A stretch of DNA of 63,801 bases, the filler included, from Perkinsus chesapeaki ATCC PRA-425 (taxonomy: Eukaryota; Protista; Perkinsozoa), in NCBI GenBank assembly GCA_013115145.1. It is 8 parts of 8 records of this genome, joined end to end, with 100 filler letters (N's around TTAATTAATTAA, not from the genome) between each part and the next. Parts side by side here need not be neighbours in the genome. Positions count along the whole stretch, not along the records: positions 1 to 23,540 come from JAAPAO010000562.1; positions 23,641 to 47,755 come from JAAPAO010000554.1; positions 47,856 to 49,238 come from JAAPAO010001996.1; positions 49,339 to 53,516 come from JAAPAO010001302.1; positions 53,617 to 55,044 come from JAAPAO010001965.1; positions 55,145 to 56,519 come from JAAPAO010002004.1; positions 56,620 to 59,562 come from JAAPAO010001489.1; positions 59,663 to 63,801 come from JAAPAO010001315.1. One strand, 5' to 3'. The notes under the pieces are model-generated. The model saw only the letters and a program-made list of their open reading frames with translations, had not been told where the DNA came from and searched no databases. This document shows, piece by piece, positions 15,313 to 63,728 of the stretch (position 1 is its first letter; every line of letters starts with the position of its first letter). Both the position numbers and the translations under genes were made by a program.

Positions 15313-15410
15313 AGGCGACCATCTGCCAGGAAGCTATATAGCTTCCTGGCAGATGGTCGCCTACACTACTATATTACTGATACGCTATAGCTTAGCTATA
15401 GCGCATCAGT
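15313..15410. repeat. 50-bp perfect palindrome (15313-15362) plus 35-bp near-perfect hairpin (15376-15410)
   Basis: aggcgaccatctgccaggaagctat|atagcttcctggcagatggtcgcct and actgatacgctatagct-t-agctatagcgcatcagt, read directly. Confidence 0.95.
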
Positions 15411-17105
15411 TAGCTGCTGCCCCACAGTAAACCCTTACGTCGCTCAACTGTGTAATTGTCGATGTCGTTAAAGAAAGTTGCATCTTCGGGAGACTTACCA
15501 GAACCTGTCAGAAGGCCCGGGATCTTCCGTGATTACCCCGACAACGCTTTTCACTCTAAACCTCAGCAAAACCGTCAACATCTTCCCAACCCGTAGTCCT
15601 CCAGTGGCAAACACAAGCTTGTCCAATCTCGCCAATTTACACGCTCTCTTTTCCGAGAGCGTACACAGAGCCGTTAAGGGAAACATGGAATCCTCGGGAA
15701 GTCTTTCGAGCGTCAAGTGGCCTGCACCGAGCTCACCATCATCAATATTGTTATCATCTCTCGGTAGTGTCGCGGATTCACCCGATATACCCTCAATGAC
15801 CGGAGCATCAGGAGCTACTATTTTCGAACCTGAACTCGTCCCTTACGAGAACACTCTATTGGCTTCCGAACTTTGCTGAGTAGGTGCTCTTTGTGACGCG
15901 ACATAGCTCCCCACCATTTCATCTGCACGAGGGTTCTTACTCGCCGATACAGGGATTAGACTAAGAGACAAGAGCGATGCTATGTAGTTGTGTTATGATG
16001 GAAAGTAAGGGGATCGAGTAGATGTACTAATATTATTAACATACACTATAATATTATGTTAACTTCACCGGTAAAATAATCCCTAAGAAGTGGTTAGTAT
16101 ATTGTTACCTACTGGCTATAGTTAAACTCAGTCTATAGGAGCGACAGTGGAGCTGGAAGACTACTCTGGTCGTAACCATAAATGCACCCCCTGGAATCGG
16201 ATCAACTCACTTTCGACCTAGCTGAGCTCCTCGTGGCAGCAGCCCCGGTGGTGGAGCAGGCAGGCCTCCTAGGGTCGTCTGTGTTGGAACCTGCAAAATC
16301 TAATAAGAAGCACAGCATAATTAAGAGATGTACTCTGTCTTTAATTCTATTTGCGATCTCGGTGATAATGTCATCGTTATTCATGAAGAGTTCATTAAAT
16401 GCTTCCTTAACGGCCATCGCTATATTCGACCGGGTATCTAAGAGTGCATCACGCACTAGGAAGGACGAGGAGCATGCCGAGCACGACAAATAGTTCTTCT
16501 GGGAGTTTAACGAAATTGTATAATTATGCCTGAAACACCCATGTGGCCCTGTTTGTTTTTTTTCAGGTCACACAACTCTATAGAATCCATAGTATAGATT
16601 GAGAACTTTCCTGTGGAGGTTGCCACAAAACTTTTTTGTGCTCCCCTTAAGTGTTGAAGTGGTGCTCTCGACAGCGTTGTATAAGCTCTCACCTGCATCG
16701 ACTGTTGATCTTCTGACGGAGTGCCGAGAGCTTGCCTGCCAAAAGACACGTATCTCGCTCGATTCTCACACTTCCTAGATATTATTCTGGTAAGCTAGAC
16801 CAAAGCTGCCTCGCGTACAATAGCTATTTCTGCGACACTATACCCTCTCTATACCCAGTATCAGGATAATTGTTGTAGTGTTACGAGATTCAATGATTTA
16901 ATTAAAACGGGTAGATTCAGGGATACCGGGGCTCCATAGGTGCGAAAACAAATGCCATAAGCTGCGAGTCATGATTGGCGGATAATAAATAGATATAACA
17001 TATAATAGGTGAATAAATCATGCTCTGACGTATAGTTTTAATCGGAGTTCGCGTTCCACCTAATCCTAATCAATGCTGGCAGTGGTCCTGCCCACCCCTT
17101 CAAGT

Positions 17106-19900
17106 TCATACTCTCTCGGATGTAGATGGCTGATGGCTGCCGTCATCAGGTTGCTCTTCCTCTGAGATATCACTCCTCCCTTCGGACTCGGCGCCAGTAG
17201 TTTTTAATTCTTCGTCACTGGTTTGCGTGACTTCTGCGTGGACAGGCAAACCGGCTTCATCGGGAGTTTCATCTGGACAAAATATTATTCGCAGAAGTTA
17301 CGTCTGCGAAAAGTAGTCGAAACTGTCGCGGCACCCATGTTCGCTTGTTCTTCCTGTAGCTTTAAGTTCTTCTTGTACTCGCACACTATCTGGATCGGAC
17401 GGATGTTTCAAAAGGGAAGCTGCTCTGAGCCGCTGTTATTTACTTCATGTCTTTGGCTGATAACTTGGGAAGCACTTTCGCACCGGAAGCTTTCCCTTAG
17501 TAATGAGACAAGGAAAGGAGGATAGCCTTCCAGAGGTGGAGCCGGCCATTCGAACTTTGCGAACGACTTCTCCTGAGAACACTCAATAGTGCAGGTCGGG
17601 ACAGCACGAAGGACGCAATCTTCAACAGCATTGATAACTTGTGGTGCGGTGAGGGGCTTCTGATGGTGCTGCTTCATGATCTGTTACGCGTCAGATTCGC
17701 AGGCGCCTCGCATGCTTTGCTGAGTTGGACCATCTTCTCAAAGATGTATCCTTTCGCCGTTGACGACAATCGCTAGGGGCTTTTGCAACTAATAATCTTC
17801 GCGCCACTCACGCTTCTAGGTTGAAGTCGTTTCTCAATCTGCTCGCTAAGTCTAGCGCGTATACCGTTATCCATCTTCACAGGTTCAGATTTACCGTATC
17901 TATCAGCGCCCTTCCAAAGGTAGCAGCAACCGTCCGAGTCACCCACAGTATCGCCGCGTCGATATTCGGCAGTAGCTCCTCGTGCACCAACTTGTTCACA
18001 TCGATTCCTCTATCCTTTTCCCAAATTCTTGAAGGTGTTGGAGTGAGCGTCACTTCCAGTTTCTTCGGTGGAACTACTTAGACACGTTCGTATCAACTTT
18101 CTTTCTCCATCACACCATAGTCATGCGGGTCTTGTTCGAATTGGCGCGGTAAGGGCCTCGTTACGCTTAACGTCGCGGGAGGCTGGAGAGGCACCTAACC
18201 GCCGTGGAGTGCGCCTAGATCTCGAGTTGTTTTTCCGAAAAGCCCGATTTGAGTTCTTTCGCTACAGGAAGTAGTAAAAGACTTCCCAGGTCTATAATAG
18301 ACCGTCTATTAGACACTGCTTCTATGATACACTGTTACCTCTCGCCCCACTAGTAGACCGTCGATTAGTGGGGCGAAAGGTAACAGTGTATCAGGAGAAG
18401 CTTCCATTCCGGGAACTTGGAAGGAATGTGGAAGACTCCTTGCTATTCGACCGTTTACATCGAACTGAGGCAGTTCCCTCTCTTCCATGTGCTCAAGTGT
18501 ATAGGCTTTCGGCGGCCCTATTATATCAGGGAAAAACTCTGGCGGTGGCATGCTAACGGGAACGATGTCGATCTAAAAGGTTTCGCCTCGCTATTGTTGA
18601 GCTGCGTGAATGTGTCACCATTTTCTGGGGAGGAACCTTAGGAAGGTCTTCGTCAACCTTCAGAGCTTCTGGAGGCTCGGGGTGGACCTGGGGTCGGGCA
18701 AAGTAGGAGTAAGTCAGCGACTATTGGCAATACGGTGCATCCGGCACGAGGCTCCTCATCGAACCTTATAGGAATGTCCATAGAAGGGACACCTGATGAG
18801 GTGATGTGGCGTAGCATCACTCGCCTATCCCCTCACCGCCGCGTTGACCAGCGACTTGAAGTTCCTCATCGAGCCCATCTAGAGGAGGTTCGTAGTCTAC
18901 CGATAGTGTTATAGGAGGCAATTCGATATCCGAGGAATCTGGAAACGAAATCGATCACCCGATCGATTCCTTCTAGACCTTTCTTTTCTCCCCGCTCTTG
19001 TTTGTCGATCAGCATCAAGTCTGGCGGACGTGCAGAAAGTACCTCAAACGCCATCGGCTCACATCAACAAACCGCCGCGACGACTGGAGCGATTCGTTGA
19101 ACGCGCGAAAGAATAAAAACTATTCAGACGAACACAGACAGACTCAATTCTTATCAGTAGTACTCTTTAACACTCACTAATACGCATTTTCATACATATC
19201 AAACGTATACGCGAAAAATACCTTACCATGGCGTCAAATTCTTCACAGTGCTCCTCGACTTCTTTCTTTTCCTCCTCAGTAAGAGCGTTCATCTCTTCGA
19301 CCATATCCCATGCTTGCGAAGCCATCTCTGGGTTCGACACACCTACCGTGGAGCACTTTCTAGCTGGTCAAATCTCCACAAATATAGTCAAGTTGGAAGC
19401 TGAAATTCTCTTCGTGAGTTTCTCATACCGTCGACTGCTAAAAAGTCACCTCTACATCAGACTATATACCGCCAAGTTATATTCCATATTTATACTGCCT
19501 GATAGTTTCCCAACAAGACCAGTCTATAAAAACTCACTGTCTAGCTTTATATCGTCCTTGAGAGCAGCAGCGACATCATGTCCTATCGCCGAGGTGTACA
19601 CAGTGTCCAAACATTCTTCGATTAGCTTGGCTGGTATGTTCCTATATTAGAAGTTTTCGGCAAGTACAAGTGGATTCTGGTGCTCACTCCTTCTCGAAAT
19701 CCGCCTTCTGTCGAAATATCTTTGGTGCTCTTTCTGTTTCCGAAGACTGACAGTAATTTGTATTTGGTAGTGCATACTAACTTCAAGTCAGTATTGTTAT
19801 GTTACTTGGTAAGTATGTTAGTAAAAAAATCAGTAGCAGTTATACTATCCATTATGAGTGAACCACGTTACCACAGTACCCGCTTTACCAGTATTCCTGG
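17106..19900 (-). CDS. Hypothetical multi-exon protein; product not recognised, boundaries approximate
   Basis: Chain of protein-like open segments on the minus strand (e.g. NIPAKLIEECLDTVYTSAIG, MPPPEFFPDIIGPPKAY, DVNKLVHEELLPNIDAAILW, acidic C-terminal tail) separated by short GT-AG gaps. Confidence 0.4.
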
Positions 19901-22900
19901 ACTGTTGTATTCGTAGTTTGCACACACAGTATAGAAAACCTTGGACCACAACTGCGACGCAACGGAATCCAAGGCTTGTATATATGGGAAGATGGTACTC
20001 ATTCCTTTGAGTGAGCCATACAGTGACAAGAACAGTATAAGTATAAAACTCTCGTAGAGATAGTCTAACTAAGCCTTCTACGGCGTTGGACTATCAACTC
20101 ACACACACGGTAGTCTGCCACTTGCAGTGTGCAAGGCGAACGTCGCCTACCTGATCCGTGTCGCTCTCATTTGACATTCGTTGGTGTGCCTCTGTGGCGA
20201 CGCTGTGCACTAAATATCTGTTATGGAAGAAGGCATTGGTCCACGGTTCCTCGAAATGCTCGAACCCGCGATCGCAGAGCTCCTCGAATGTTGGTCCTTG
20301 CTGTTCGTTATCACTCTCTCCCTGTTCCGAAGAGGATCCGGCCTAAGCACGCTCATAAAAGGCGTCCTTTTTTAATGCTCGCTGACTAGTCCGAACGCGT
20401 ATGTGTTGCCCAACAACTTCGCGATTAAACAGTATGGCCCAATTTCGGTTGACGTATCGATGCGAGATTCTGCTCTCTTCAAAACACCACTTACCCTCTC
20501 TCCTGCTTCTGGACGTTTGCCATATAAGCACATGCAGCAATATTGAGCATGTAATGGATTACTGTGGGCATGGGGCTTCCAGACCGGCAGAGTAGACGGG
20601 ACAGAAGTTGTGTTGCCTGACGGCTAAAAGATTCGTCCAATTTCCTTAATCGAGCGAGCAAGGTCTTGATACGGATCCTCCACAACATATGGGACGCTAC
20701 CCAGTGTCCGACGGTACAAAGCTCAACCGGGTAACCCGGTCCGGGTTCACGCCCGACAAATTCTCTTATTAGCGTATTTGAACACTGTCTCTTACTTGGA
20801 CTACTCTGTCCCACTTGAACTGTCATTGCTGTATCGGGACGTTCCGTACTGTTCTGAGACTACAGCAAACGATAGGACCAGCCATGACTTCATGAGTTAT
20901 TTTGCTCACCCCAGGATTTTCATCGGCGTTTCGGTCGGACATTGCTGAGTTGGAAACGGCAGCTAAGTAGTACCGAAATCAAACCTCGAAGGCTTTGAAG
21001 AACTCGGGAGTATCAACAACAAGATGAACAATCGGTGAACGTATAGTTGGATTAAGTACTCAAGCGTCCAGGTCGCGGATAGAGGAAAGGAAACGTCACG
21101 TTTGTGATAGAATAAAAGGACCGACATGTCGAAGGTTGCTCGTAGAGTGGATAGTCCAGCTAAGCCATCTCCCTGGGCGGACTGTGCACTAATACAACAG
21201 GCGATCCACAAAGCGGCACAGAGAGAATGGGTAGAGCTTTGCTGAGAAAAACTCTTCAAAAAGAAGGTATAAGCTCCACAATGAGCCGAAGCCGATAAGT
21301 GTGAGGTGGTCTTTGCTGGTTGGTACTATGAACTAGTCCAAAACCGTTACAGGCTCATAAGGAAGTGAGCGTCATTTTCTTAGCTTAATAGGTGCCACCC
21401 AATAAGCTAACGATATAAGCCCTGACCGTAGGCATTCTAATTCAGTCTCGGATCATCCAGTGACTGGGTTACAGTCCGTACGCAACCATTAGAAACCTCG
21501 CATCGTGGAAGGGCGAGCGAAATCCCTGTAGGGTCGGCAACCTGCCGACGTGGCCCGAGTAGCTTTCATCGAAGTGTCGCTATTTTGCACTACAGTGACT
21601 TGTGCAACGGCAGACACTATGGGGGTTCTTGCTGAGTAGTGCCACGGTGTACTACATGCTACAGCATAGCTCAGCATGTTAGAACTGACTAGCTGAACCA
21701 CATATCGCGTATCTGAGAATCTTTCCCATGGAGCGCATGCGTAATCCTTGAACATAACCTTTGAAAGCACAATGAAGATACCTCGATAGCAGTATGGTGG
21801 CGTCTTTCATTGAAAACTATGTAACGTTGAAATTGAGTGATGAGAGTGCGAGGAAACTATTCAAACCAGAAGCACGACGCAGGCCAGACTCAGAGTCCCT
21901 GCGAGTCGGGTAAGAGTAGTTCGAGTAGGGATGTCGGGATGAATCTACTGGAACACCTCCAGCTCACATTATTCAAGCTACATATAGGCAAGCCGTTAGT
22001 AATAACTCAATTTTGGTGGGCAGTGCAGTCAAATCAGCTATACCGGGCTGGTTGCATCCCTGCCGTGCGTGCCCAAGTTCCTGCGCGGGGATACGTAACG
22101 GAAGAGACTCCCTATTAGGCTGCTAAATAGTGTATACTATACACTGTATAGCTTGCGCGATCACAGTCTTAGAGTTGCACAAGTACGGTCGTTCTATGAT
22201 TGAGCAGTCTAGGCGAACTGCTTAGCCAATATTGTGGCCAAAACAGTTCTGAATTCGGAGCCGGCGGCTCCGAGCCGTCTTGAGCAATCCTCGCTACCGA
22301 GTCACTGGCGAAGATAGTCAGTAGTAATGAGTAATCCTAGACCGAGCCTTACGAAAATGTGTTCACCGAAACTTATAAGTGTTCCTAGCACGCCGTGCTA
22401 AGCACAGAGGCGCGATGGGAAAGAGAAATCTTCCTAGCTCCAAACAGAGTATAAAATGAAGCCTCCTGAGCGAGCTTTATGTTTCTGTGGGACCTTCAAG
22501 GACCCGTAGTTTAGATCGGGAGAACAAAAACATCCTTTCTGTATTGTATTATCCGAATGCACTCCGAGAATGCCCAAATGCAGATGCTAAGTCACCTAGC
22601 CTCTCCTCGAAGACGACGCCTTTGGCGCGTCACATTTCAAGGGGGCTAAGCAAGAGCCCAGATCGTGAAGCAACACTAAAGGTAGGCTAAATCTTACTAG
22701 TAATGCGGCTGTAGAGTCTATAGTATAGACTAGAGGGCCTCTAGTAAGCGGGCTTATTGAGAAAGGTTATAACTGCTCGTACCGACTCTCCTGCAACTAA
22801 TTTCGAGGCTACGCCGATTAACACGTATGTACGAATGTATGAACTCGAGCTGGGGAAAGCTGTTGTTGCTCCCCATCCCTGCTTCGCCAGTATGATCAGA

Positions 22901-26678: not shown

Positions 26679-27735
26679 CAGATGCAGTTGGCGTTCACCT
26701 CTATCGGCTTTACTGAAGGCGCTCCTTCAGTAATAGGCATTCCTGGCACGGGAATGATAGGCGCTGCAAATAATAACACCATAAGAACACAACTACGCCT
26801 GTTTGAAGCAACTGAAAATTATTATGGACAAATTTATCTCATACATGAGAGAACAGCGGCTCTGAAAAGGCCCCGAAAACACGGGAAGAGGTACTGCCCG
26901 GATTGAACGCGCGCGCAAGCACAAACAAATACGATTATCACCTCCACCGTGGAGCCTCCAAGAGTGCATGGATCCTTCACTCGAGGTCCTTCGTCAGCTT
27001 CCGTACACGTATGGAAGATCAAGAGAGCCTTGCCAAGAGCAAAACGAGGGCCGCTCGAAATATGAGCTCGGGATGTCAGTTTCTGTTATCGAGTAGTAAT
27101 TATTCATTCTGCGTAACTGGATCCATTGTACATGCGTGCAAAGCTAATTCCTCTCATGAGAGTAACTTAGAAGAGTAAGTAAAAAGAATCATCTGTTGAC
27201 TCCTTCCTCGTCTTGCATTCGTCCTTGTGAACGGAGAACAATCAACAACTTCGGAAACCTCGCTCCACGGGGCGCGTCGTGTCAGCGCTCCTTCGGAAAG
27301 CAGTGGCACAAGCTTTCTCGAGCATGTTGGGAACTGCCATTTGAAACTCTGGATTATCGCAGTTATAGGAGAGTAGCTTCCCGCATAAAATTTAGAAGCA
27401 ACGATGGATTGATGGTCTATGTGAATGATAATCTCAGATTGTTCACATCCATCAAACGTAGGATGTAGACAGTTCTACGCCTTCTCAGTGCAACATGTGC
27501 ACGCATGCGCAGCGTGGTAGCACAAAAAGTTGTACTGCTTTTAAGCATTTAGAACCCTCATTTAGTTGGTTTTGACCCATTGTCTCAGTATAGAGTGAGT
27601 CCTGCTAAGCTCTCTTGAAAACTCTCACAAGTTAGTTACAGTCTTGACTAGGCTAGTATGCCTTGGCTTATTCCAGTGGAGGGAGTCTAGGGAGCTTCTC
27701 TTAACCTTTATAAGCTCAGTCCAACATCATTTGCT

Positions 27736-28566: not shown

Positions 28567-30332
28567 TCAGCCAACGAATGCCTGATACTCTCTACGATCA
28601 CATCAATCCCAGGCCCGAAGAGGCTCATATGAGAATGTAAATGCTTTGTTGTGGGGTGCTGCATCACAACCCCGTTCTAGAACAGATTGCTATGAACGAA
28701 GCCTTCAATGCGGCTTATCATTAGTCTTGACATTTTATGTGTTATACTTGCTTGATCGTCAGCCAAACGACTTAGCCCCACCCTCAGAATACTTGCGACT
28801 TGGAGGCAATTGTGAAGTTTACGAGCTTATTCCCAAGGGTGAGCTCTGAGCTCGGTCGAGAAGTTCGTTCCAGATTAACTCTCGCGCCTCGTATTTGCTC
28901 CATTCCGCGCGAATAACTCCTGCTTTGTTGAATATGATTTTTCGTCAATTCCGTAGGGCCGATGTCACATCAGCTTCTTCTCTTCTTCTGTTGAGTTACA
29001 TGTAGGCGAGTGCATTCAGGAGACATATAGCCTCACGGAAATGTGGTCCTCGGGGGTCAAAAGGTGTTCTTAGTGCGGAGATATTATAGAAATTTTGCTA
29101 GAAAATATGTTCGTGGGTCGACAGGAAATATCAAATACATTCCTTCTGGGCATAATATGTAATGTTCCTTCATGGCAGTCATGCACAGTGCATCGCGACG
29201 TTCCCGTCGGGTCGTATACTAGAACGCTCACAGCATCAGGTCCCTGGGCCTGCTCGAGGTGCGATAGTTCTGAAATTCTGCTGTGGCCTCGCCAGTGGCC
29301 AGCATAGGGGCCCAACCGCTTGGACACCCAGAGGTCGCAAACACTCGGGGGGCAGGGAAAAATTAGCCTGCCATGTACTCTCGCTTTCGCAACTTGAAGG
29401 AAAAAAACTTCATTCGTAAGCAAAACTTGATCTTCCTTTGAGCTATATCTCAACCTCTGAAGGTAGGGTATGCCTTCCCCTACCTCCTAATCCAAATGTC
29501 ATTATATTTCGTAGAGTTCCGAAAGTTCCGGAAGGTTTCGGATCGAAACTGTCGGGATATAGTTGAGCAAACAACTATAAATGACTTATAAACTAGTATC
29601 CATCAAGAGTTCATCATTTATCATTTATTAAGAGTTCATCAGCTGGTCGCAACCAAATAGAACGTTGCGACATCTCTTCACTCAATGTGGCCACTGGATG
29701 GAGATCGCGAAGTTACGCGACCGTGAAGCGAACAGCGACGAGTCGTAGATCCACTACTGCCACCGTCAACACAGCACGATGGACACTACCGCCACAGCTT
29801 GAACTTTGGGGATTTAGAAGCATGAAGTACAGTGGAGAGAAATGGAGACACAATGACACAATTTGCCATTGGGTCAACAGCGCACAATGCCAGTCTGGCA
29901 TTGCCAGAACACCCAATAGGTGCCCAGTAGGCTCTGTATTGATATCCGGACCCACGACAGGCACTGACTGACACAACTTTTCCGCGGCGCTGCGCAATAT
30001 TTGGTCACAATACTCTTTGTGCTGTAAGTGTGCACAAAGTGTTTCTATAACGTTAAGCTTGTAACCGTTTCGTGGCTATTACACTTATGAGTAAATTAAA
30101 TATGTCGTCATCTCTCTTTTATTTTCCTAATTATTTATGTCTTCCGGTATTTCTGCACAGGAAAAGCGCAGCTTCTCCGAGGTTGAAACCGTGCCAGAGA
30201 GTTGCACGGCTGTCGACGCGTGCGGAGACCGCGAGCAACACAAGGTGGTGCAGCACTGCGGGGGACTATGGCCTCGAAACCTGGACATGAAATGAGTTGG
30301 GCTGGGGGCTCAGCCTGAGCCTGAGCCGCTCA

Positions 30333-30455
30333 GGTTTGGCTACCCATGTGAACTATGAACTTCGCAGAGTCAAAGGCTTGTCAGGTATTTGTCCTAGCTT
30401 CGCTGCGAGGCCTTCGCAGAGAATCATCTCTTTTAACGATGTTTCTCTTTGCCGT
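30333..30455 (+). pseudogene. Remnant of the 5' flank and start of a family copy
   Basis: ggtttggct...cagagtcaaa...cttcgc...cgcagagaatcat...aacgatgtttctcttt aligns with 36301-36393, which precedes the truncated copy at 36376. Confidence 0.55.
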
Positions 30456-31226
30456 CAGCAGCCCTACACAAGTGGTAAGATGATCAAGTAACCCTTGCCG
30501 AGGCCACAACGTGGGGCCACCGAAAAGGTAAGTTTGTCAGTTCCTGTCATCGAATAACAATAAGTCATTATGCGCCCCGCTCCACTGTACATGCGTACAC
30601 ACCTAATTCTCTTGCGAGCGAAACGTGAGTTATAAGAAGCATCTGTTGACAACCTTCTTACCTTGCATCTGTTCTCCTGAATGAAGAGCAACCAACAACT
30701 TCGGAAGCCTCGCTCCCTGGGGCGCGTCGTGTCAACGCTCCTCTGGAAAGCGATGATACAAGTTTCCGCGAGTATGTTGGATACTGTCGTTATAAACTCT
30801 GAATAAGATTGCTGTTAGGACAAGAATTGTTCGTATAAAGATTTGCAAGCAATGATTGATTGATGGTCTATGTGAATGTTAATCTCAGATGGTTCACATC
30901 CATCAAACGTAGGATGTAGACAGTTCTACGCCTTCTCAGTGCAACATGTGCACGCATGCGCAACATGGTAGCACAATAAATTGTATTGTTTTTGAGCATT
31001 TACAAACCTCCTCCAGTTTGTATTGACCCATTGCCTCAGTAGATAGTGAGTCCTGCTGAGCTCTCAGGGATGTTCACTGACGTAGCTCTCCTGAGAGTCT
31101 CTCAGGAGTCTCAGTTAGTCTTGACTAGTCTAGTATGCCTTGGCAGCCAAGGCTTGGCTTATTCCAGTGGAGGAAGTCTAGGGAGCTTCTCTTAACCTTT
31201 GTAAGCTCAGTCCAACATCGTTCGCC

Positions 31227-32092
31227 ATGATGTTTGTCATGATGTTTCTCTTCCCTATCTGCTTCACGGTTATCTCCGCGGGTATGGTTGATGAGCCTTT
31301 CGACATTGATAAGTATAAATCATTGTTCACGATCACAGAGCACACGAAAGTGGTCGACATCACAATGAAGCATAACCGCAGACTCCAGTCGTCCACGGGA
31401 GATACGCAGTCCTTCACTTACCCGGAGGGTTGTTCACCAACTCGAAGGAGGTTCCTGGAGCAGTATTGTGTGGTCGGCACCTACACCACCAGTGATGCTG
31501 TTGATATCTCCCTCGACTTGCACATTTACGATGCGAACGACAACACTAAAACTGTTGTCCTCGGAATGTCCGCTTCGTTCAAGGACGGTAATCCAACCGC
31601 TATGACTCATAGCGGCATGGCTGCTCATAGCCTATGAGCAGCCATGCCAGTGGCTGTGCTGACTTGGTCGATGAGACGTTGTCCTATGGTAGCCTACGTG
31701 GTATCGTCAATGCCTGTATGGCGGCCGGGGGAGAAGGGCAATATGATCCGGCAACTAAGCAGTTCACTGCGCCAGCAAGCATCACCAGCAATGTGATTAT
31801 GCGCGGTTTCGGTCGCGATCTGATTAACGAGGATTATACTTTGACTGGATATTACCTTGCTGGCAATGAGTTTGGTATGGGTATGAATGCTACTATTAGG
31901 AGTCGAAGAAAGAGAGATGGTATCTATGATGGGACCCTTGGCTTCGATGTGAGCTTTGGTACAGTGGCCAACAACCTTTTTGCTTGGCATGCATTTGCTG
32001 GTGTACGCTCCTCCGCGCAGCTCCTGGACTTCAGACCAGCTTTCGCAAGCTACCCATTCCTCGACCTCATATTGAATGTGAATCCCCAATAG
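31227..32092 (+). pseudogene. Secreted family copy 2, frameshifted by a 32-nt palindromic insertion
   Basis: The ORFs 31227-31637 and 31634-32092 together span the full paralog. The extra 32 nt (31600-31631) are absent from the other copies. Confidence 0.9.
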
Positions 32093-34260
32093 GGCAGGGC
32101 GCAAGCACGTTTCAGTACATCAGTATTGTGGACAGTCGGCCTCTTCTTCTGAAGTATGATTTGAGGGTCTCTAGGCTGCTGCCTTGCGTGCCATATCCGA
32201 AGTCTTATTCCTATATGGAAAACATGATAAGAATGCCACCTCCAAGTATAGCCCTCGGTAGGAATACAAAACGGCATGTCATTTATTTTCTCTTTCTTGA
32301 AAAAGTTGTTCGGACCAGGTATCAATAAGCCAGATGTCAGTCATTATCATTATACCTTTCGAAAATCCTTAAAGGGCTCATGGGAGTTAGTGATCGCTTG
32401 TCTCTACCCCATTACTGATTCGCGTTTGGATACTCAATGCTAACTGCCGTCCGCTGATCCCATGGCGATACCTCCAATTGACTTCAGTGTGAATGACCAT
32501 CGCTAATATAAACAGTTAAGCAGCGTTTCACGAGACCAAGAAGCGCGGTGAGCGTGTTTGTCCATTTAGATAACTTCAGTTAGTCACGTGTCTCCACAAG
32601 GCATTCATTATTATTGCGCTTGAGTAAGCTGAGATGTAACGTCTGTTGGGAGGCTCAGACTGCACTCGCAAGGATTTCACCATTGTGAACGGAAAAGATA
32701 TTTGCCATTGGCATTTGACATTCGTATAAGTCATCTTTCGGCTCAGCCTAAGAAGATCCACTCCACAGCCGGCGTGCGGATGTGTCGTACATTGGGCGCA
32801 ATTACAGTGAGTGTAACGTGATTGAGTACTTATAATTAATCCAGATGCCGGTTCATTCAGGAGTCCTGAGTCAGGACTATTTGAGGACCGTCAAGATCCG
32901 ACTATGCTCAGTTTCGTTACTTAAAAATCTTAACAGTGGTGGGAGTTGGGAATCCCAAATTGGGGCTGAGTCGCCTGTCGGCTCTTCGCCAACAAGAGCG
33001 TCACCTTATCCCCGCATCACATGCAGAGTACTCCGTGTCTATTGCAACACAATATCTTTCTTCCAACAACATACCGGCGATCGAGACTTACATACCAACT
33101 GGCGTCGCCAGTCTGGCGAGCGACAAAGACACGTCACCCAGCGCACAATGCGGCACGGAGGTGTTGTGCTGTAAGCACTTATAGCACAATCAAGTGCTTG
33201 TAAGTAGAGCTTATCCCGCCTAGTATCCACCACAGACTGTCGTTCGAGACGGCCGACCTAAGCTCACAGGTTGCTTGTGGCAGGCTCTTCCAGACAGCTG
33301 AGCGTAAATGAGAGCATTGCTAAACAATGTCCGTACGGCGTGGAAGTCCGTTGCAACTTGTGAGCGCAGTAACTAGCCTGATCCTGAAGGCTACAGTGTA
33401 GCCGCTATACCTAGATTGTCCCGGAGTCCCGGACAATTTGTCCGCCTCGTGAATCTGGCAAATTGCCCATTGGAGTTCGGCAACTACTTTACTCCCCTGA
33501 CACCAAGATATGCTACGAAACGAAGACACCAGCAGCTGGCCCTGACGCTCGGGCTCAGAGCAGGGCAACCACTTGCGTTGGGACGGCGCGATGTATCAGA
33601 CGCACGTGCGCGCCCTGTACACATAAGCTGAAATATCTACAGACTACACGGCTTAACGGATACTATTATCCTATCATAGGATTCCTATGCGACCGATTAC
33701 TAACGGTGTTTTCATCGTTTGCAATGCAAGATCACCAAGATTGCATTCAGTTGACGATCAGCTTCAAGTTCAGAACTTGGCGAAGTACCCTCTGGAACGG
33801 AGGCGCCAGGGGGTCTGGTGTTCTTGACTCGAACACTGAAGAATGAGCTTCTAGTATTCGACGTTTACCGTTCATTCCAACTAAGTCTTCACATAAGATT
33901 GTCAACACCATTAAATGAGGAGCGACTCTGGATAATCATTAATGGGCTCGTCCATGATGGACGGTCCATCAGTCAGTCTTTGTCTCCATGTGTCTGCGTG
34001 CCGAGGCGCATGCGTGTTTTCGCGCGGGCCGAGCTTTGGTCGTTGTTTATCAAGTGTTAGAGCTGTAGGTAGGCTCTCGTGAATAGGTTAAGGGGCTTTA
34101 CTTTGTTGAATCCCGTAACCTATTGATACCTCCTCACTAATTTCAAGACCTTTATCCATCAGAGTTCAGTCCAGGCTGGCAATGCAACAACAGAGATGTT
34201 ATCATTGATGTGCATGTATTGCTATATTCCGAACTAGTTTCATTATTATTTCCCCTTATA

Positions 34261-49238: not shown

Positions 49239-52200
49239 NNNNNNNNNNNNNNNNNNNNNNNNNNNNNNNNNNNNNNNNNNNNTTAATTAATTAANNNNNN
49301 NNNNNNNNNNNNNNNNNNNNNNNNNNNNNNNNNNNNNNTGGGTAGTAAGCGATCGTGATGAAGGGGATGATGAATGCGACAGTGCATCAACTTGATACTA
49401 TCAAGTGCCACCATTACACGGCTGCAATGATGATCAGATAGGTGAAAGAGTCATTTATACAAAAGTGGAAAAATATACCATGAAACAAGGAAATAATAAT
49501 GCAACAGTCAGTTACACTATTCAGCTGAAGCAACGTGAATAAACACACAGTGATTATCAACAAGGGCAAACCTTACCCCGGTATTCCGGTAAGTAAGACC
49601 AGTACGACTCCGCTTCACTTGTCGAGATGGGCCATGTCTCATCGATGCTGCTTGACTAGCTGCAGGGGCAGCACCAGAGCGACTGAAAGGAATGATGTGA
49701 AGAGAACACACGTTCCAACGGCAATATTAAGTACACGAATTCAGAAACTTTAAAATAAAACTTCATCCGCTCTAACAAGTGCAGGAGAACTCGATGACGT
49801 GAAGTCGCAATGGGAAGACGTCCAGGAGTAAGAAGAAGCTCACCTAGTTTGAGATGGCTCCAGAGTGGCTAAAGTAGCCGAACGCTTCAATCGTATTTTC
49901 ACGGACTCTACTCTATAGTGGAGTATCTAACAAACTGAACCTCCAGCACATCCGAGCGGACAGGAAGGCTCCCACTGAGGGTTACCTCCCAACCATCCAC
50001 AGTCACCCCTGCTTCGGCCAGATGGTCTAACCAGTCCGCATGGACTTTCAGGGGCAACAGGTGTGAGCTTTCGGAAGGGAGTGTTGACTCTGAACTCGAT
50101 GAGACCTGGAAAGATAGAACCTATATTAGCAGTAGCAGTAGTGCAATCCGAAATTTCGTGCTTGAAGAAAAGAGAATATGGCCAATGGCTTAGCCATACT
50201 TCGTAATGCAGCCATTGTGGCTGCATCCCCATAGTGGTAGCGACCTCCACAACACTCAAGAGTAAATATGGGTGACTATATGGGTACGGGGCTGCTCATA
50301 ATAGACGGAATGGGCCTTCCCATTTGGAGGTAAAAAATTGCGCCCAGTTTTGCTGAAATTCCTCGAAGTGTCACGCGCCTAATCAATGAATAAAACTGTT
50401 GATACGTTGATATAAAAGCAAGAACCTTCGGAACATCCACTCTCACCTTGACAAGCTCATATTCTCTAAATCGGTCATTGGGGAATAGAACTATACGAGC
50501 AGATGGCTCTGGGTTTCCAGCAGAGGTACCCTCAAAGAGATCATCACACGTCAACATACCACAGCTCCAACACAACCGACGATATCTGAGGAAACCCGCG
50601 TTCGAATCCCAGGAGAGGTATTTCCACATGTTCATGCGTGCAAATCTCATACCGCTCTCGCCACAAATCGCCTAACATTTTATCATGGTACTTTCGTAAT
50701 TTGCAATATAATTGAGTTCTCCTGAAGAATTTTCCTTCATTGAAAATTCTGCTTGGAACTCGGAACCTTTTAATTAATATTATAGAGGTTAATGTATACG
50801 ATGTAATACTAATCACTGAAGGTTTGATAGATTGGAGACTTTTGTTTACATTGTAATAAAGATTAACTTAACGACACAGTGGAGCTGATCTAACTTACAG
50901 CACGCTTATTAACATTATTCATTTGCCTGATATAACACTCATTACAGAATGCTACTTTACATCATAATCAAACATCAGGTTAAAATCTCAAAGCAGTTCC
51001 AGTGCAGAATGCCTGCCATCCAGCCGAGTGGGAATGTGTTCCACTGGGATCGAAAAACGCTCCGAATGTGGAGGAGATAAAAGGGGAAAATTGTCACAAA
51101 AATGTGTCCCCAGCCAAATAAAGAAACATCAAGTGCAATTTTTCTGGGCCTAACAGCTTGTGTTTCTCTCTGACTCCTCGGACATGATTCAAACAAGGCC
51201 GCCTAAAATCCGTACACCTCCCAAACCCGACCATCGTCATTCGTTTGCTTCGGCTAATTCACATAGCAATATGCTTACTTCTCATAACTTCCATCTTTCT
51301 CTTTCTTCAACGGTTCTAAACACACCAGTTCACCTTCAAAGCGAGGACATGCTGGGAGGCAAGTGGAATCTGGCACCACCTGAAAGATGAAACCGGCATT
51401 TGGAGAAGATACACCATCATTTCGCGCTTAAAATAGGCCTAAGATTCGATTCCGTATAATGTGGTACCGCCGAACTCAACGTCGACATCATCAATACTTG
51501 CTATTACCGCTGCTGTGTTTCAATACTAGTACCATAAAGAATTCTGTGGCACACTATAACATACAAATAAGCAAGAAATGGCAAGAAAAACCGAATTTCG
51601 CCTCGAGAATAACGATCGCTGTTCCTTTTTTTCACTATAAGCTTTCCTCCTAGAAATCTTTTTAGTACGTAGTGCACGCTTCAAGCTCACCTTCGTTTCC
51701 TTCAAAATCTCCCTCATCGATTTCGGTTTGAACTCTCCCTCTACCGGAACCGTTCGGCCCTCTCCAACGCATTTCTCAATCCACGCAGTCGGCGCAATGA
51801 GCACACCTCGTCTGGTAGCCTCCTAACGTTAAGGAAGTGTAAGATTCTCCAAGACATGCAAGATTTCCTACCTCTAGGGCAGTCTCATCAAAAGCATCGT
51901 CAATAACTGCAACATCGCATCTTTCCAATGAGGACTCAACGCTTGCCGCTCCGTTGGCCATCGCCAAACTTTTGAAACTGCCAGAAGATACCTTTGAGGT
52001 TGTCTTGGAATTTTCCTACTGCGCAAGAGATCCTGTGGATGTTCCAAGAAAGCAGAAGCGAATCCCTTGAAAAACCTGAGCGAGAAAAATCCGAAATTTT
52101 CCAGAAATTTTCCCACCTTTAAATCATATTTGTTCTCATCGTGTGGAATCCCTTTCAGTTTCCAACATTCTTCGATGAATCCCGGCCTGACACATCGGAA

Positions 52201-55044: not shown

Positions 55045-55192
55045 NNNNNNNNNNNNNNNNNNNNNNNNNNNNNNNNNNNNNNNNNNNNTTAATTAATTAA
55101 NNNNNNNNNNNNNNNNNNNNNNNNNNNNNNNNNNNNNNNNNNNNAGTTAAAAGTCAAAAATTCCGTGTACGAGTTTCATGTGTACGTAATTT

Positions 55193-56519
55193 ATGTGTAC
55201 CAATCGTTATACACCCCAACGCACTTCTATAGGTCGTCTTCTTGTTCTTGCATGTGATGTTCGTGCACGCCTACTCCTACCTATTACAGTCTGTCATATT
55301 GCTGCCGCTCTCAACACCGAGGCTGATGTTCTGTCCCGTCTGGCAAGTACTTGGAATCTTTGCTTGGATGACCTCTACGATAGCCAGAGGTCAGGGCTTT
55401 GTTTCGCGCTGCGTTTCTATTCTCATTCCTTCTTTGCCTGCGCTAGCTGCTTCACAGCGTGACTTCGGTGAAACTTTGGCAATCATTTTAAACTGTGAAG
55501 CGAACAAGCATGTTGGGTACTATGAGTGTCCATTAGGCCGATTTAGCTTAGAAGAGCGAGATGGTCAAGATGTCCTGGTAAGAGTGATTATGACAACTGG
55601 TACCCCGCATACAGAAGGTCGTTCCGTACAGGTGCATCCATGGAATGACCGAGATGCCACTGACTCGTTGATACGTAAGTGCCATGATGAGATTGGTCAC
55701 TTATCTACTGTGATAGCATTTTATTAATCGATAAAATAAGTATCATGTTATATCTTGCTATCTTGTATATCCTTAAATCTGTCTGTAACACAAAGCTGTT
55801 ACGCTAGTTAGTTTGTTATAATACGTAAATAATAAGTGAGAGCCACTACTACTATTTTCCATTTGTTATTATGAGTTTACCATCATCAAGTCCCGAGTTG
55901 AACAATGGGAGGTCTACCGCTGACATCTACCCCTATGACGTTATGGCACCTTCGGAGACTATGGTGGTGGAAAGGTATACGAGCTGATACTAAGCGTGTA
56001 TGCATGTCTTGTGGCCATTGTATTTCAGCTATTATAAAGGGGTCTACACATGTCTGGAAGGGTAACCATTTGGACCATACTGTGAAAGCTCCATGGCAGA
56101 CAGTTTCGGCTGACCTAGCAGGTCCATTCGTAGCCGATTCGTTTGGATGCACTTATTGTCTTTTGCTCTGTGACCACTTCTCCGGGAGAAGTGGTCACGG
56201 ACGGACGAAGTACACAGAACCGGGAGAAGTTCTCCCGGTTCTGTGTACTTCGTCCGTTACGTAGTGCAACGAGCAAAGAAGTTGTTCGAGTAATGACAGA
56301 GGTTTGTAGCATTTTTGGTGGCATGTGTGTCCTTCGTTCAGACCAGGGAACATGTTTTGCCTCTAAGTTGACTCGGTCAGCTATGACAGCTCTAGGGGTA
56401 ACTGTTCGTCTCTTACCCCCTAGAAGTCCTTGGTCTAATGGTTTGGTAGAACGACGAGTACAAGAACTAAAAGTCTGTTTGCGAGGGTATGGCTTGACTA
56501 AGTCACGTTTGTGGAGCTC
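55193..56519 (+). mobile_element. Ty3/gypsy-type LTR retrotransposon pol fragment (RNase H end, integrase H2C2 and DDE core), inactivated
   Basis: HIAAALNTEADVLSR (RNase H end); CHDEIGHLST|PMTLWHLRRLWWWKGIRADTKRVCMSCGHC (H2C2); PWQTVSADLAGP, CDHFSRF, LRSDQGTCF and SPWSNGLVERRVQELK (rve core). The RH-before-INT order is gypsy-like. Confidence 0.92.
55709..55925. mobile_element. 217-bp solo-LTR-like insertion (TG...CA) with 5-bp TSD tctac
   Basis: tctac at 55704-55708 and 55926-55930; the insert begins TGTGA and ends TGACA. Removing it and one TSD restores the integrase reading GHLSTPMTLW. Confidence 0.85.
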
Positions 56520-57742
56520 NNNNNNNNNNNNNNNNNNNNNNNNNNNNNNNNNNNNNNNNNNNNTTAATTAATTAANNNNNNNNNNNNNNNNNNNNNNNNN
56601 NNNNNNNNNNNNNNNNNNNAGCTATGAATTGACTCCAACACAATAGATGTCGCTCAGTTAAGGTACATTACATGCATATACCTGAAGTATATATACTATT
56701 CATAGGCCTCTGGTGCAATCTGGGCAAAACCTGCAAAGACAAACGTGAGGCAGAACATTGCCTCAGTGCCAGGCCCCGAGGGCCTCCGAGTCCCAACTCA
56801 CCACTCGCCTTCCGGTGCTGACTCTAAGCTCAAACAACTTAGGTGAAACCAGCCGTCACACTGAGAGAAAAGAATCGATCTTTTTTAATGTTTCATGTGA
56901 CGTGAGCAGTGCTCACTGAGCACTGCTTCGCCCCATGTCTCACCCCGTCGCATCCAAGGAGGATTCTGCCCGGAAGACTCCATGGCTCATGACATATAGG
57001 GCAGGTCCCCGTCCAGTCCTCGCGTCTCGCGATATTATCTACAACTTGTAGATGACAAGCCACGCAAGCTGGTCTATGATTATTTCAGCTCGTACACTCA
57101 ATACTCATACATCGAACAGTATTGGGACATGTAATAACACCATAGTAACATAGTGTTACTAACATAACAACATAGTGTTTGGCTTTGCCCAACACTTTAA
57201 ATCGATGTTCGAATTTAATGTTTTTATTTGGTTTCCTCACGGTGAGGGTTGAACTCACGACCTTTCGTGAAGTAGCACCACCAACAAAGTGAAAGTGTAC
57301 GAGTTTTCTGTGTACGAGACATGATACACCTCCTCATTACCTGCTGGTAATGAGTCTGAAGTCTGCCCTATTCGCTGGCAGCGTTGTTTGGCTTTGCCCC
57401 TGATATCATCGCGTCTTCTGGAACAGGCAGGCAGTTTTCGGCCCTGATGAACTTCTCGTACAATCAAACAGAATCTCAGCCTACCTTAGGATTAGCGGAT
57501 TGACTGGGCCCGCCAGAACGTTTTCTGAGATGCATCCTGTGCGTTCCGCGATGAGCCTGGAGAACCAAATCTGAAGAATAAGAACTAACTACGATTCTAC
57601 CAGCTTGGAAACTTCAGCCTCTTGGCGAGCTATGTCCAGATGAGTCCTCATCGAAGCGAGGACCAGGGTGGCAAGGCTGATGGTGATTGTTCAGGAGAAG
57701 AGGAGCCGATTTCGTCACCGCGTTGGGGCTGAAAGGCTTCGT

Positions 57743-58330
57743 TTAGGTCGGAGTGATTTGCTGAATCAGCGGCGCTGATAACTCCACCTCCGGCGAGCCT
57801 CCAAAGTACGCCTGCATATGAGATAGCGATGCTGACCAGTCCACATGTTCGATCGGGGATAAATCCAAGGCTTCGCTCTGACCGAACACACCCACTGCCG
57901 GCGAACGGCAAATTCTCCGCCTTGAATCTTCGTCCGCTGATCCCCAAATGTCACCTGAAAAAATCCATAGTCCCGTGACATAGTCCAGACTCTGGGGCCC
58001 AGAGTCTGGGCCCCAGAGTAAGCCCAATACACTGCGTTGAACATAGCGTACCCTCTTCATCCAGCTCTCCGCCAGATATTCCATCTTCCTCATCACTACT
58101 TGAAGAACTCTGCTCAGTGGTCTCAGTATCTGTTCATCTCGATGAATAAGACAGTAACCCCAACGCAACGTACCCTCTTCACTTGACGACTTATCACTCG
58201 ATCCATCTCCCCTAACACGGTGGGCACCACCGCTAGACGACATTTGCTCGGGGTCGGACTGCTCGTCATTGCCTACAATGTAGGCCCTACATTGAGATCT
58301 CAATGCGTCGAGCTCAATGCTGCGAACCAC
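57743..58330 (-). mobile_element. Possible IS630/Tc1/mariner transposase remnant
   Basis: LDLSPIEHVDW resembles the SPDL-S/N-PIE-H/N-x-W signature. The rest of the ORF is not convincingly alignable by eye. Confidence 0.3.
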
Positions 58331-58929: not shown

Positions 58930-59562
58930 TAAGAATGACAAAAAAGACTCAAGATGTCGGAATTACCTCACACATCCTTGAGCCGATCTACCCGGTACTA
59001 TCAGGCCAGAAAAGAGCTCCTCATATGGCGCCTTGTTATCTTCCAGTATCATAAGGCCGGTGCAGTGTCGACAAAAAGTGTACTTGACTCCATCCGGACA
59101 GCTACACCGGTACCCCCGGTACAATCCGTCGTCTGTAACCTTCACAACTCGAACCATCTGGTTAGATTTATCGAAGTCACTGGCGTCACGCCAAGTTTGC
59201 CAGTCCCGGGAGTCGTAATAACACTTGAACTGGGCGAGCACATCACCGAGTTGAGTACCGTACAACCTCGCGCAAGCTTCAGATGGAATGAAATATCTCG
59301 CCACTGTTCCAGGCTCCGATGTCGTAGGTTCCGAATCCAAGAATATCAGCCCCTTACGCACAACCTTTGACCGGGTCCATCTGAACAGAGATGATACCAT
59401 TAACACTGTTAACTTAAGAGTCAGCTAAATTTCACTGCGAGCTAACTCCCCGATAAGTATAATCCAGATTCAATTATTACCGAAATCCTTGCATAACCTG
59501 ATCGCGAGATGGCTTGAACTCCTCTGGTTCCTCAATCGAGCCAAGTGTGGAGTAATCGGATA
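58930..59562 (-). mobile_element. Mutator-like (MULE) transposase C-terminal remnant with SWIM zinc finger
   Basis: YRCSCPDGVKYTFCRHC fits the SWIM pattern C-x-C-x(n)-C-x-H; the upstream frame is broken and runs into a gap. Confidence 0.6.
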
Positions 59563-61873
59563 NNNNNNNNNNNNNNNNNNNNNNNNNNNNNNNNNNNNNN
59601 NNNNNNTTAATTAATTAANNNNNNNNNNNNNNNNNNNNNNNNNNNNNNNNNNNNNNNNNNNNGGCACACCATCGTCTGCCAGGTACACCGCCGGCGCGTC
59701 CCTACCTCCCAGTCCCCGCAGTCAGAGGTTTCAATTGGTATTATGGAAGTTCGAAAGCAGTTGGATTGAATCTTTGCCTGATTACATTGCTCTTCAACAT
59801 CTCAAGAGGAGAAGCCACAAGAGTTACGAGTGGTCTTATCGTGGCTCACTTTTATTAGCGAAACGGGCGGTGACCGTGACAAGACAGGAGTGTTGCCTAC
59901 TGCGAATCCAGAAAGTTCTGTTTGATAGGCAATGCTCATCAAACTGGATCCATTAGAGAATCATTCTCTAATCTTCTCTGAGAATGAGAGGATTATCGTT
60001 ACCAATTTCGACATCAATGCTTGTCAAGCATTGCTTGAGCTCTATTTCTTTCGACTGGCTCTTGATACTAGGGAACCAATGCCGGTGTCTCTGTGAATAG
60101 CGACAGGCCATGTTAGGCTGTCTAACTTAGACAGAACATCCACGTCACGCCGTCACGGCCCGCGACGTGTCGGATTATAAGGGCCCGATGACTCTGGGCT
60201 TTACTTCGAGAGGAGACTATCGAAGCTCTTCGAGCATAGAGAGGCATAATGTCATTATGATAATGATCGTAGATTACATAGCAGAATAATATTTCGTGCA
60301 ACTTGTGGCTTCTGGTCCAAGGAAGACTTCGTTGGTTGAAAAGCGAAGTGGTCGTCACACAAAGTCTGTCCCGTTAAGAGAGGGGGGGGGACGAGAGAGG
60401 CATGTGTGAGGCAGTATAGAAGATATCATGGTTAAGCATAGATCAATCTTTATTGAGGTGCACGCTCAGCCGATCGAAGCAGAACTGCCTTGATACTCGT
60501 CCATTAAAGGGGTCAGTTACTCTACGGTGGAGAGCAGTGAGGTTAGCGTAGATCCAGATGCTAGATCGTTAAATAATGTTGATGCAGTTGAGGAATGTAT
60601 CAGTTGTGTTAGATAGATTAAGGGAGTCTCAAGGATATAAGGTCGGATGAGCCTTAACAATCTCTGAAACTCGATGCACTGAACTTGGTCATCTCTTATG
60701 CACTGTATAAACAACGATTATTATTAAACGGTGAGAATTTCACTACTGTATGTGGCCGATTCATCTTAAGAGCGCGCACACGAGGCTAATGTTACAGGAA
60801 GGGACTCATTAAAGAACTACCGACGACGAGCAGTGTCTGATGGTTGAATGAGACTAGGAACGAGACTGTCACGCGACGTAGCACACTCTTGGACGCCACT
60901 ACACCTGGGCCCCCACAGTATAAGGCGAGTTTGACAAAATAAGTGTGTCGTGCCTGGAGTACGGGAACCGTGTTGCAGAGGGTTCATGCCCTACTGTGGA
61001 CGTCACTTTGGCTTGAAGCCTTTTGTTACTTACAACTAAATATATTATTTGACAAGGAGACGGTTATAGTAATAAAAATGATAGCTGTTGCTAGTACGTT
61101 GTCAAGTATAACGAAGAGTAGAAAGGATATCGGTCTATTGGTCAGAAATCGAGATCGCACACCGACTCTGCAGTTGAGTCGGCATACGTGCTACAGTCGG
61201 AAATCTCTCGTTCAATGCCGAAGAACTCTTCGGCGCGCTTGAAGGAATTGCCGCGGAATCTGACAAAAATATCTGACTTATGTTTGAAAGGAGAATCTTA
61301 CCTTATCATCAAGGCGAACAGCGCAATAACGATTACGAGGAACACTGTTGACACTGCTTTTTCGAGCTCCTCGAAAATCGCAAAATCCGCGACGGAGGAC
61401 GGCAGGAAATCAAACATTAATTGAGTCAACTGAGATAGCAAAATCGTCTCATTTCAAAATGAAGTCTGATTTGCAATACTAACTGTTGATCCGCGCACCC
61501 GCACAACAACAGAATCGGGAGCTTCAATAACGGAATAACGACAATTCGCTCGGACCTACTGTATGTGAAATACTGACTGCTCCGAAACAACCAGTTTAAC
61601 ACTACAATAACGGAACAACGAGGAAGATTGGCTCCGTACTAGTGAGCTAAAAGCGCATGAACATCGAGCGCACCAACCATAATACACCCATCTGGCTTTC
61701 GCAGGGCTCACGGAGACCCGATCAACTGTAACTGTTGAAAGATACGCTCCTCTCCGACCGCATCTGCTGCTGCTTAAAGAAATTCGACAAGTTACTGAGA
61801 GCAAATCATTGATATTGTACTTAGATTAAAAAAGTATATGTACTGTAATGTATGTTGATGTAGGAAGCTGTAC

Positions 61874-61936
61874 TTGGGATTCCCAAATGATTTAAGAATC
61901 TTAAATCATTTGGGAATCCCAATCTTAAATTAAGAT
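61874..61936. repeat. 49-bp palindrome with 1-nt loop (61874-61922) followed by a 15-bp hairpin (61922-61936)
   Basis: ttgggattcccaaatgatttaaga-a-tcttaaatcatttgggaatcccaa and atcttaa-a-ttaagat. Confidence 0.95.
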
Positions 61937-62825: not shown

Positions 62826-62958
62826 AAAAGGCGGATTACTAAAGTGAAGAAGAGGATTACTGAATTGAAGAAAAGGGCTACTAAAGTGAAGAAGAGGGTT
62901 GCTAAAGTAAAGAAGAGGATTACTTAAGTGAAGAAGAGGATTACCAAATTGAAGAGGC
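62826..62958. repeat. Degenerate 21-bp tandem repeat, about 6 units
   Basis: Consensus aagaagaggattactaaagtg; reads KKRITKV on the plus strand or SNPLLHF on the minus strand. Confidence 0.8.
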
Positions 62959-63728
62959 GCTTCATTGAATCGATCACTATACCTCATTTTAAGTTGTTCC
63001 TATGTTATAGCATCCACTTCACAAGAAAGCCTTAAATAAAGAGACCCCGTAAATTAAAAAGACCTAGCAACATCTCGGTGCCAGCGAGTTCATTCATTAG
63101 AATATGATGATATAAATTTTCCAAGCGATCGCCTTTGAACATATCCACGATTAGGTATGTCACATTAGTTCTAGTGGTCTCGCCCAAGAAGGACGGTCTT
63201 GCCATTTCAGTAAAGATACACACGGATGAGTAGGGAGCGATTGATCAAACACGTCGATGACGTCATCCCAGGAGTTCCCGACTGTGAGTTATTCGGGAGT
63301 CCCGAATCGGGACTAAGCAACTTGGGATTTTTGAACGTCCCTTTTATTGCGCTCGATTCGAATGACTCGCACATGAATCATCCATTTCCGTTCTTCCTCA
63401 CTTGCAAGTTCCACCCTGCAATGCACGGTTCTCCCAATCCTCAAGAAGATCCTCGACCAACACTTTCCCATCGGACTTCCGGCGGAGTGGCCCCATAGGA
63501 ACTACACAGTGCTAACTGCGGCGGCCGGAATCATTTTAGGTAACTTCCTCCAGAAGATACGAGAATATGACCGCTAGTCCTTAATAGGTACTAGTTCGAG
63601 ACTCGAACTTCGAGTATCTTTTACGTGCCGCGCTGGTATGCCTACACCTTTTCAACGCCTATTGCGACAATAGTAACTTCATTTTCGACGGACGGGCAAA
63701 GTTTACGTTAAGATTCTCGTTTAGTAAG

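Follow-up and report, generated by a model that had tools for sequence, protein, structure and literature searches.

Recurrent 22-base insertion scars in a 63.8-kb window of the Perkinsus chesapeaki genome, probably left by the excision of an 8-bp-duplicating, most likely hAT-type transposon

The alveolate Perkinsus chesapeaki, a parasite of shellfish, carries in a 63.8-kb stretch of its genome (the window, i.e., the whole stretch of DNA analysed) a family of short insertions built to the pattern W(1-7)+rc(W)+W(2-8), in which W is an 8-base word and rc(W) its reverse complement. The forward-inverted-forward 22-mers exceed a single copy of the word by 14 bases, the words of different sites are unrelated to each other, and each 22-mer represents an insertion of 14 bases at an 8-base target, referred to here as a scar. 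The window comprises eight contigs separated by artificial spacers (N plus a stop-codon linker), does not represent one stretch of chromosome, and was analysed together with contigs of four public runs (X1-X4). Seven exact scars, two sites with one mismatch (22257 and 22386) and seven longer forms had been reported in an earlier note on this DNA. All were recovered: the 22-mers by pattern scan, the long forms at 30307, 31599, 33415, 56177, 59955 and 61891 by a general model, and that at 15313 as an even palindrome whose left hairpin indeed lacks a loop base. The seven exact scars are thus real, but their number was an undercount, as 12 of the 19 present had been missed (18289, 20726, 22130, 29887, 33098, 33668, 35166, 35930, 57990, 58271, 60017 and 60245). 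The sites are listed below with the means of their detection; no strand applies.

18289..18310, exact 22-base scar (pattern scan)
20726..20747, exact scar (pattern scan)
22130..22151, exact scar (pattern scan)
22257..22278, one-mismatch scar (pattern scan)
22386..22407, one-mismatch scar (pattern scan)
22709..22730, one-mismatch scar (pattern scan)
29887..29908, exact scar (pattern scan)
31138..31159, exact scar, +14 relative to paralog (pattern scan, paralog alignment)
32856..32877, one-mismatch scar (pattern scan)
33098..33119, exact scar (pattern scan, run contigs)
33389..33410, one-mismatch scar (pattern scan)
33668..33689, exact scar (pattern scan, run contigs)
33949..33970, exact scar, +14 relative to paralog (pattern scan, paralog comparison)
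35166..35187, exact scar, also in the paralogous copy at 37737-37758 (pattern scan, paralog comparison)
35930..35951, exact scar (pattern scan, run contigs)
38136..38157, exact scar (pattern scan, run contigs)
45053..45074, one-mismatch scar (pattern scan)
45807..45828, exact scar next to a two-mismatch scar at 45785 (pattern scan, run contigs)
49384..49405, one-mismatch scar (pattern scan)
56902..56923, exact scar (pattern scan)
57983..58019, compound scar with exact core at 57990 (pattern and loop scans)
58271..58292, exact scar (pattern scan)
60017..60038, exact scar (pattern scan, run contigs)
60112..60133, one-mismatch scar (pattern scan)
60245..60266, exact scar (pattern scan, run contigs)
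63292..63313, exact scar (pattern scan, run contigs)
63594..63615, exact scar (pattern scan, run contigs)
15313..15403, long scar with filler, left hairpin without loop base (25-bp-arm even palindrome)
30307..30334, long scar, 6 bases longer than the common form, 2-base-overlap joint (general model)
31599..31638, long scar, +32 relative to paralogs, arms of 9 and 17, 2-base-overlap joint (general model, paralogs)
33415..33444, long scar with 4-base filler (general model)
46661..46690, long scar with 4-base filler, newly found (general model)
56177..56236, long scar, arms of 14 and 28, 2-base filler, in an LTR-retrotransposon integrase (general model, Pfam)
59955..59986, long scar (general model)
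61891..61936, long scar, left arm of 24, 1-base-overlap joint (general model)
27661..27668, empty paralogous target of the 31138 scar, single word copy (paralog alignment)
34621..34628, empty paralogous target of the 31599 scar (paralog alignment)
36530..36537, empty paralogous target of the 33949 scar, one mismatch (paralog comparison)
29373..29380, empty target, another genomic copy of which is scarred in all four runs (run contigs)

The pattern was searched at word lengths k of 5 to 14, as W(1..k-1)+rc(W)+W(2..k), in the whole window and in 30 block shuffles. Exact matches numbered 2, 1, 0, 19, 0, 0, 0, 0, 0 and 0 across these lengths, and shuffle means were 1.2 for k=5, 0.13 for k=6 and 0 from k=7 upward; the comparison with shuffled controls that had been proposed as a check on length thus yielded a peak at 8 and nothing at 7 or at 9-14. 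When up to two mismatches were allowed at k=8, 45 hits (19 exact, 10 with one and 16 with two mismatches) at 42 non-overlapping sites stood against about 0.1-0.2 per shuffle. This corresponds to a density of approximately one scar per 1.5 kb, well above the one site per 4 kb previously estimated. The regularity bears on a generic origin in replication or in the repair of breaks, by template switching or snap-back synthesis. A path with two switches can write forward-inverted-forward sequence, and the filler in some long forms looks templated. From such synthesis, varied lengths and words without target bias would be expected, whereas the 19 matches at length 8 are accompanied by none at 7 and 9, the offset is fixed at one base and the words share a bias at positions 2 and 7 (see below), and this origin is considered very improbable.

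Hits with one to four mismatches are above chance, and the scars show a range of decay; this excess, together with a scar common to paralogs that are 91% alike, indicates that scars have accumulated over a long time. Their distribution in the two-mismatch scan is uneven, with none before 16578, in 38160-45050 or in 49410-56900 and eight packed into 32-36 kb. Judging from the positions of cyclin-like, ankyrin and redoxin frames, scars may avoid intact genes.

The one-base offset of the pattern has its counterpart in the loops of the two hairpins contained in each scar. With both loop bases left free, the scan returned 23 cores at k=8, in 19 of which both loops are the complement of the missing base of W, in agreement with the rule put forward in the earlier note; in the other four this holds for one loop only (chance for both, about 1 in 16). 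Uncomplemented tips as a pair were found in none of the 23. Hairpins with a one-base loop and arms of at least 7 bases numbered 71 in 49 clusters, compared to 1-5 clusters in five shuffles, and even hairpins were at chance level in the window. For two complemented tips at spacings of 0-30, strong enrichment was observed at 7 only (22 vs 1.3), spacings of 0-6 being at or near chance in the window. Likewise within the window, the short two-base footprint was at chance level (2 vs 1.2) and the geometry without offset, W rc(W) W, was absent for k=6-10.

In the long forms, arms of up to 28 bases extend into the flanks, and the joints consist either of overlaps of 1-2 bases (30307, 31599, 61891) or of 1-4 bases of filler (33415, 46661, 56177, 59955). 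Directly after the 18289 scar, an 85-base imperfect inverted repeat (18318-18401) may represent an older long scar. At 31065-31108, 30 bases from the 31138 scar, about 25 bases with a one-sided hairpin and filler are inserted relative to the paralog; a 13-base stretch at 31065 resembling an Ac end was dismissed, since its four matches in the window compare with 1.5 by chance and at least four were reached in 8 of 100 shuffles.

That the scars are insertions, as the earlier note had held, is borne out by paralogs within the window. Relative to these, the scars at 31138 and 33949 add 14 bases each and that at 31599 adds 32, and each of the three empty paralogous sites holds a single copy of the word. 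The reverse case is provided by the single word at 29373-29380, for which contigs of all four runs contain the full 22-mer in another copy (joint 29379 to 29437). For the 29887 scar, a loose end behind 29893 (two contigs each in X1 and X3, agreement 0.68) suggests an unscarred copy elsewhere. The scar at 35166 is shared with the paralog at 37737-37758, the segments being 91% identical, and is therefore older than that duplication. The genes concerned form a cluster at 27691-44768 of five near-full tandem intronless paralogs plus one fragment (DUF6740-like, 71-76% identical), which probably encode secreted proteins and were not found in the metagenome collection; the 31599 scar shifts the reading frame of one of these copies. 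A second disruption is seen in the LTR-retrotransposon pieces (55902-56519, + strand, and 46833-47755, + strand), where according to Pfam the H2C2 and core domains of the integrase lie in different frames, split by the long scar at 56177. A repeat start near 46833 has 8-10 different flanks per run.

Run contigs without a single difference span 31936-34209, 35379-36790, 37954-42186, 44663-46053 and 59706-63751 and include 10 of the 19 exact scars, the other nine lying outside the stretches or records covered. An assembly or library artefact could be suspected from the concatenation of eight contigs, the poly-C start of the window and the fact that one of the read samples may be its source. Against it stand these zero-difference contigs, drawn from runs of two samples and two studies (the four runs representing at most two samples, one of them possibly the source of the window DNA), as well as the varied decay of the scars and the one common to diverged paralogs; an artefact is regarded as extremely improbable.

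For analysis of target preference, the 45 hits were reduced to 39 sites by removal of two compound sites, of the paralogous copy at 37737 and of hits that overlapped. Of the 78 word-strands, 37 had T2 or A7, i.e., T at the second or A at the seventh position (p=4e-5), and for exact scars only the proportion was 18 of 38; across the tested sets (18/38, 27/54 and 37/78), p ranged from 0.004 to 4e-5. The bias suspected earlier from fewer words is accordingly present. A central TA was found in only 4 of the 39 words, and the flanks lack strong bias. The target preference of Hermes, nTnnnnAn, is the same, although it is near-invariant in the Hermes table and weaker here (about 47-50%) (PMC2803484).

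Taken together, the 22-mers are probably excision scars of a cut-and-paste transposon, most likely a hAT element, that duplicates 8 bp of target and forms hairpins on the flanking DNA. Insertion of the element would duplicate W. At excision, the transposase would nick one base into each flank and seal the host ends as hairpins, the left one turning from W(1-7) into rc(W) with the complement of W8 at its tip and the right one bearing the complement of W1. A host nuclease would then open both hairpins at least 7 bases from the tip to leave long 3' tails, which would anneal over the full 8 bases, because they carry the duplicated target in opposite sense (rc(W) vs W); trimming of flaps and filling of gaps would yield W(1-7)+rc(W)+W(2-8), and the same 22-mer would result wherever the hairpins had been opened. 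Less frequently, tails may be joined via overlaps of 1-2 bases or filler to give the long forms. Opening on the other strands would produce uncomplemented tips, the pair absent from all cores. Scars would pile up where selection tolerates a +14 frameshift.

Several properties of known systems are matched. The duplicated target of 8 bp can be read from the scars themselves, in the length peak and in the single word at empty paralogous sites, and in 19 of the 23 cores the centre of both palindromes is the complement of the element-adjacent base, as in hAT footprints. Footprints of Ac/Ds have this centre too and are explained by hairpin opening and microhomology joining, their palindromic arms reaching up to 20 bases in yeast (PMC5873905, PMC1978519). 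Those described from Saccharomyces cerevisiae, Arabidopsis and Candida albicans are, however, heterogeneous and mostly short, with 3 bases as the longest in Candida and arms of at least 3 bases in 47% in yeast (PMC5873905, PMC1978519). In the window, a single +14 product that uses all of the duplicated target is dominant and the short form stays at chance level; the scars, moreover, are natural, fixed features of the genome that occur about every 1.5 kb. Hermes/hobo shares the 8-bp duplication, and Hermes makes hairpins on donor ends (PMC2803484), but no such element or transposase was seen in this window. Coding joints of V(D)J recombination and Transib also involve hairpinned host ends opened off-centre, which gives rise to palindromic additions (P nucleotides). 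They differ in the 5-bp duplication class and in the absence of an offset; a Transib/RAG-type origin was rejected, as k=5 is at chance and W rc(W) W is absent. Dada elements (6-7-bp duplication, specific small-RNA genes) were likewise discarded, the words here having 8 bases and being mutually unrelated.

The claim of hAT-type origin made in the earlier note is thus upheld as far as the 8-base peak, the complemented loops, the insertions and the T2/A7 bias are concerned; the hAT nature of the enzyme is not, as neither a hAT domain nor a filled site was detected in the window. The scars work like hAT footprints, and membership of their maker in hAT is likely. A number of observations weigh against this assignment. 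A search of the window for filled sites (duplications of 2-10 bases plus inverted ends) returned only chance-level pairs and scars; for 8-bp duplications with short inverted ends there were 16 weak candidates at chance-level settings, none of them convincing. No hAT Pfam domain was detected in 176 window reading frames, which comprised 19 chosen frames plus 157 of 179 frames with lengths of 75-149 aa located past base 9000, the remaining 22 of the 179 being mostly other frames over known genes. The open-access literature searched reports MULE and Merlin proteins for Perkinsus but lists no hAT elements, and the window itself contains a fragment of a MULE transposase. Published hAT footprints are shorter and more varied (PMC5873905), whereas short, heterogeneous joints are not the main product here, the two-base form being at chance. 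The relative Perkinsus marinus scores Ku70, Ku80 and Lig4 as present (PMC6635534 Table S1, a table that does not include Artemis). Finally, precise excisions and very short scars are invisible to the pattern, so that dominance of the 22-mer applies to detectable scars only.

The lack of filled sites is also what would be expected if no transposon had ever resided at the scarred sites. A staggered nuclease (a domesticated or abortive transposase) might leave 8-base overhangs that are filled one base short, sealed as hairpins and annealed in the same way, a geometry that would yield an identical 22-mer. Dozens of scars contrast with no filled site in 63 kb, no filled allele was present among the loose ends listed for the four runs on two stretches, and no shared element end stood beside a scarred word among them. 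Yet the window represents less than 0.2% of a genome of tens of Mb, which makes the absence of a filled site weak evidence, and hairpin sealing of filled overhangs is not known to be an established route; the formation of flank hairpins by transposases is established (PMC5873905, PMC1978519, PMC5499845). This scheme is rated as quite unlikely.

The transposase fragment found in the window is located as follows.

58963..59424, - strand, C-terminal SWIM-bearing fragment of a MULE-type transposase (HMMER, BLAST, Atlas)

HMMER ties the fragment to Perkinsus olseni proteins labelled SWIM or MULE, and BLAST aligns it with P. olseni P0005 at 30% identity over 140 residues; the nearest Atlas clusters of P0005 are MULE at 0.96. 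A MULE transposase is thus represented in the window, which in itself does not link the fragment to the scars. A reading frame at 58966-59424 is 99% identical to a protein labelled Perkinsus chesapeaki. In the public gene model P0001, whose start lies immediately behind a scar, the fragment is fused to scarred sequence downstream; the model is probably an artefact of the broken element. The same scars and repair could result if the maker were a MULE or some other 8-bp-duplicating transposase outside hAT. Target duplications of 8 bp are made by Merlin families, and Merlin ORFs are present in P. marinus, as are 21 MULE-domain proteins (PMC3558436). The MULE Muta1 of Aedes aegypti forms hairpins on flanking DNA (PMC5499845), and its superfamily is represented both in Perkinsus and, by the P0005-like fragment, in this window. 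Excision of Muta1 in yeast is, in contrast, precise in more than 90%, and no +14 footprint is described in the sections available of that report (PMC5499845); moreover, the T2/A7 bias is that of Hermes (PMC2803484). In the window scan, no 9- or 10-base class accompanies the 8-base words. MULE duplications often vary from 8 to 10 bases. A two-mismatch scar (59399-59420) lies at the start of the open frame of the fragment, which at that site is consequently a victim. A non-hAT maker is therefore taken to be fairly unlikely, and excision of a hAT element is retained as the probable source.

Dominance of the long +14 product, with the short form at chance, implies an unusual repair step on the side of the host. 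With Ku70, Ku80 and Lig4 present in P. marinus, the idea that this uniformity stems from a loss of classical end joining is not supported. Dedicated scar-writing would go further: a domesticated or hit-and-run transposase-type nuclease would make hairpinned breaks with an 8-base stagger across the genome and leave no elements behind, and opening of the hairpins at a distance from the tip, in spite of intact Ku and Lig4, would turn nearly every break into the same frameshifting +14 scar. Such a system is considered unlikely; if real, it would contribute indels and pseudogenes to the Perkinsus lineage on a major scale.

The underlying chemistry is known. The open-access literature searched contained no report of a near-uniform, genome-wide +14 scar at such a density, nor any description of scars of this kind in Perkinsus. 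In the portions available of papers on Perkinsus transfection, only plasmid fragmentation and non-homologous integration are mentioned. As a rule, excision footprints are too short and too varied for recognition in a genome. Each scar in this window reveals the target word from which it was made and is detectable by pattern alone, so that past landing sites can be mapped and dated by decay, and a target logo can be obtained without the element. Scars are further of use as polarised insertion markers in strains and species of a pathogen of shellfish, point to unusual opening and joining of hairpinned breaks in an organism with a relative that retains the classical joining genes, and can, via the +14 frameshift, kill gene copies; a scar-broken copy is seen at 31599 (where the scar adds 32).

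Besides the scars, a high-copy element begins at 63642/63643 and extends to the window end at 63801. Contigs leaving 63642/63643 into different flanks numbered 44, 14, 42 and 35 in X1-X4, and the flank counts differ between the two samples (42-44 vs 14). An opposite-strand joint (63690-63736) suggests inverted ends of about 48 bases, the subterminal repeat reaches several hundred times single-copy depth, and the first two bases could be the TA target of a Tc1/mariner-type element. The element end was not found in the metagenome collection. An open frame of 953 codons (193-3054, - strand) has no Pfam match and contains a 12-residue tandem repeat; the contig end beside it opens with a run of about 70 C that is probably a sequencing artefact. 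Tandem repeats of 24 and 36 bases with a low-complexity PDDKPSQ-type frame are located at 45991-46432, and a short dispersed repeat (about 190 bases, high depth) at 42128-42316, with a 177-base back-joint in run contigs. The contig at 53617-55044 harbours an S1/P1 nuclease gene and has 48 identical bases in common between its two ends; it is probably one unit of a tandem array.

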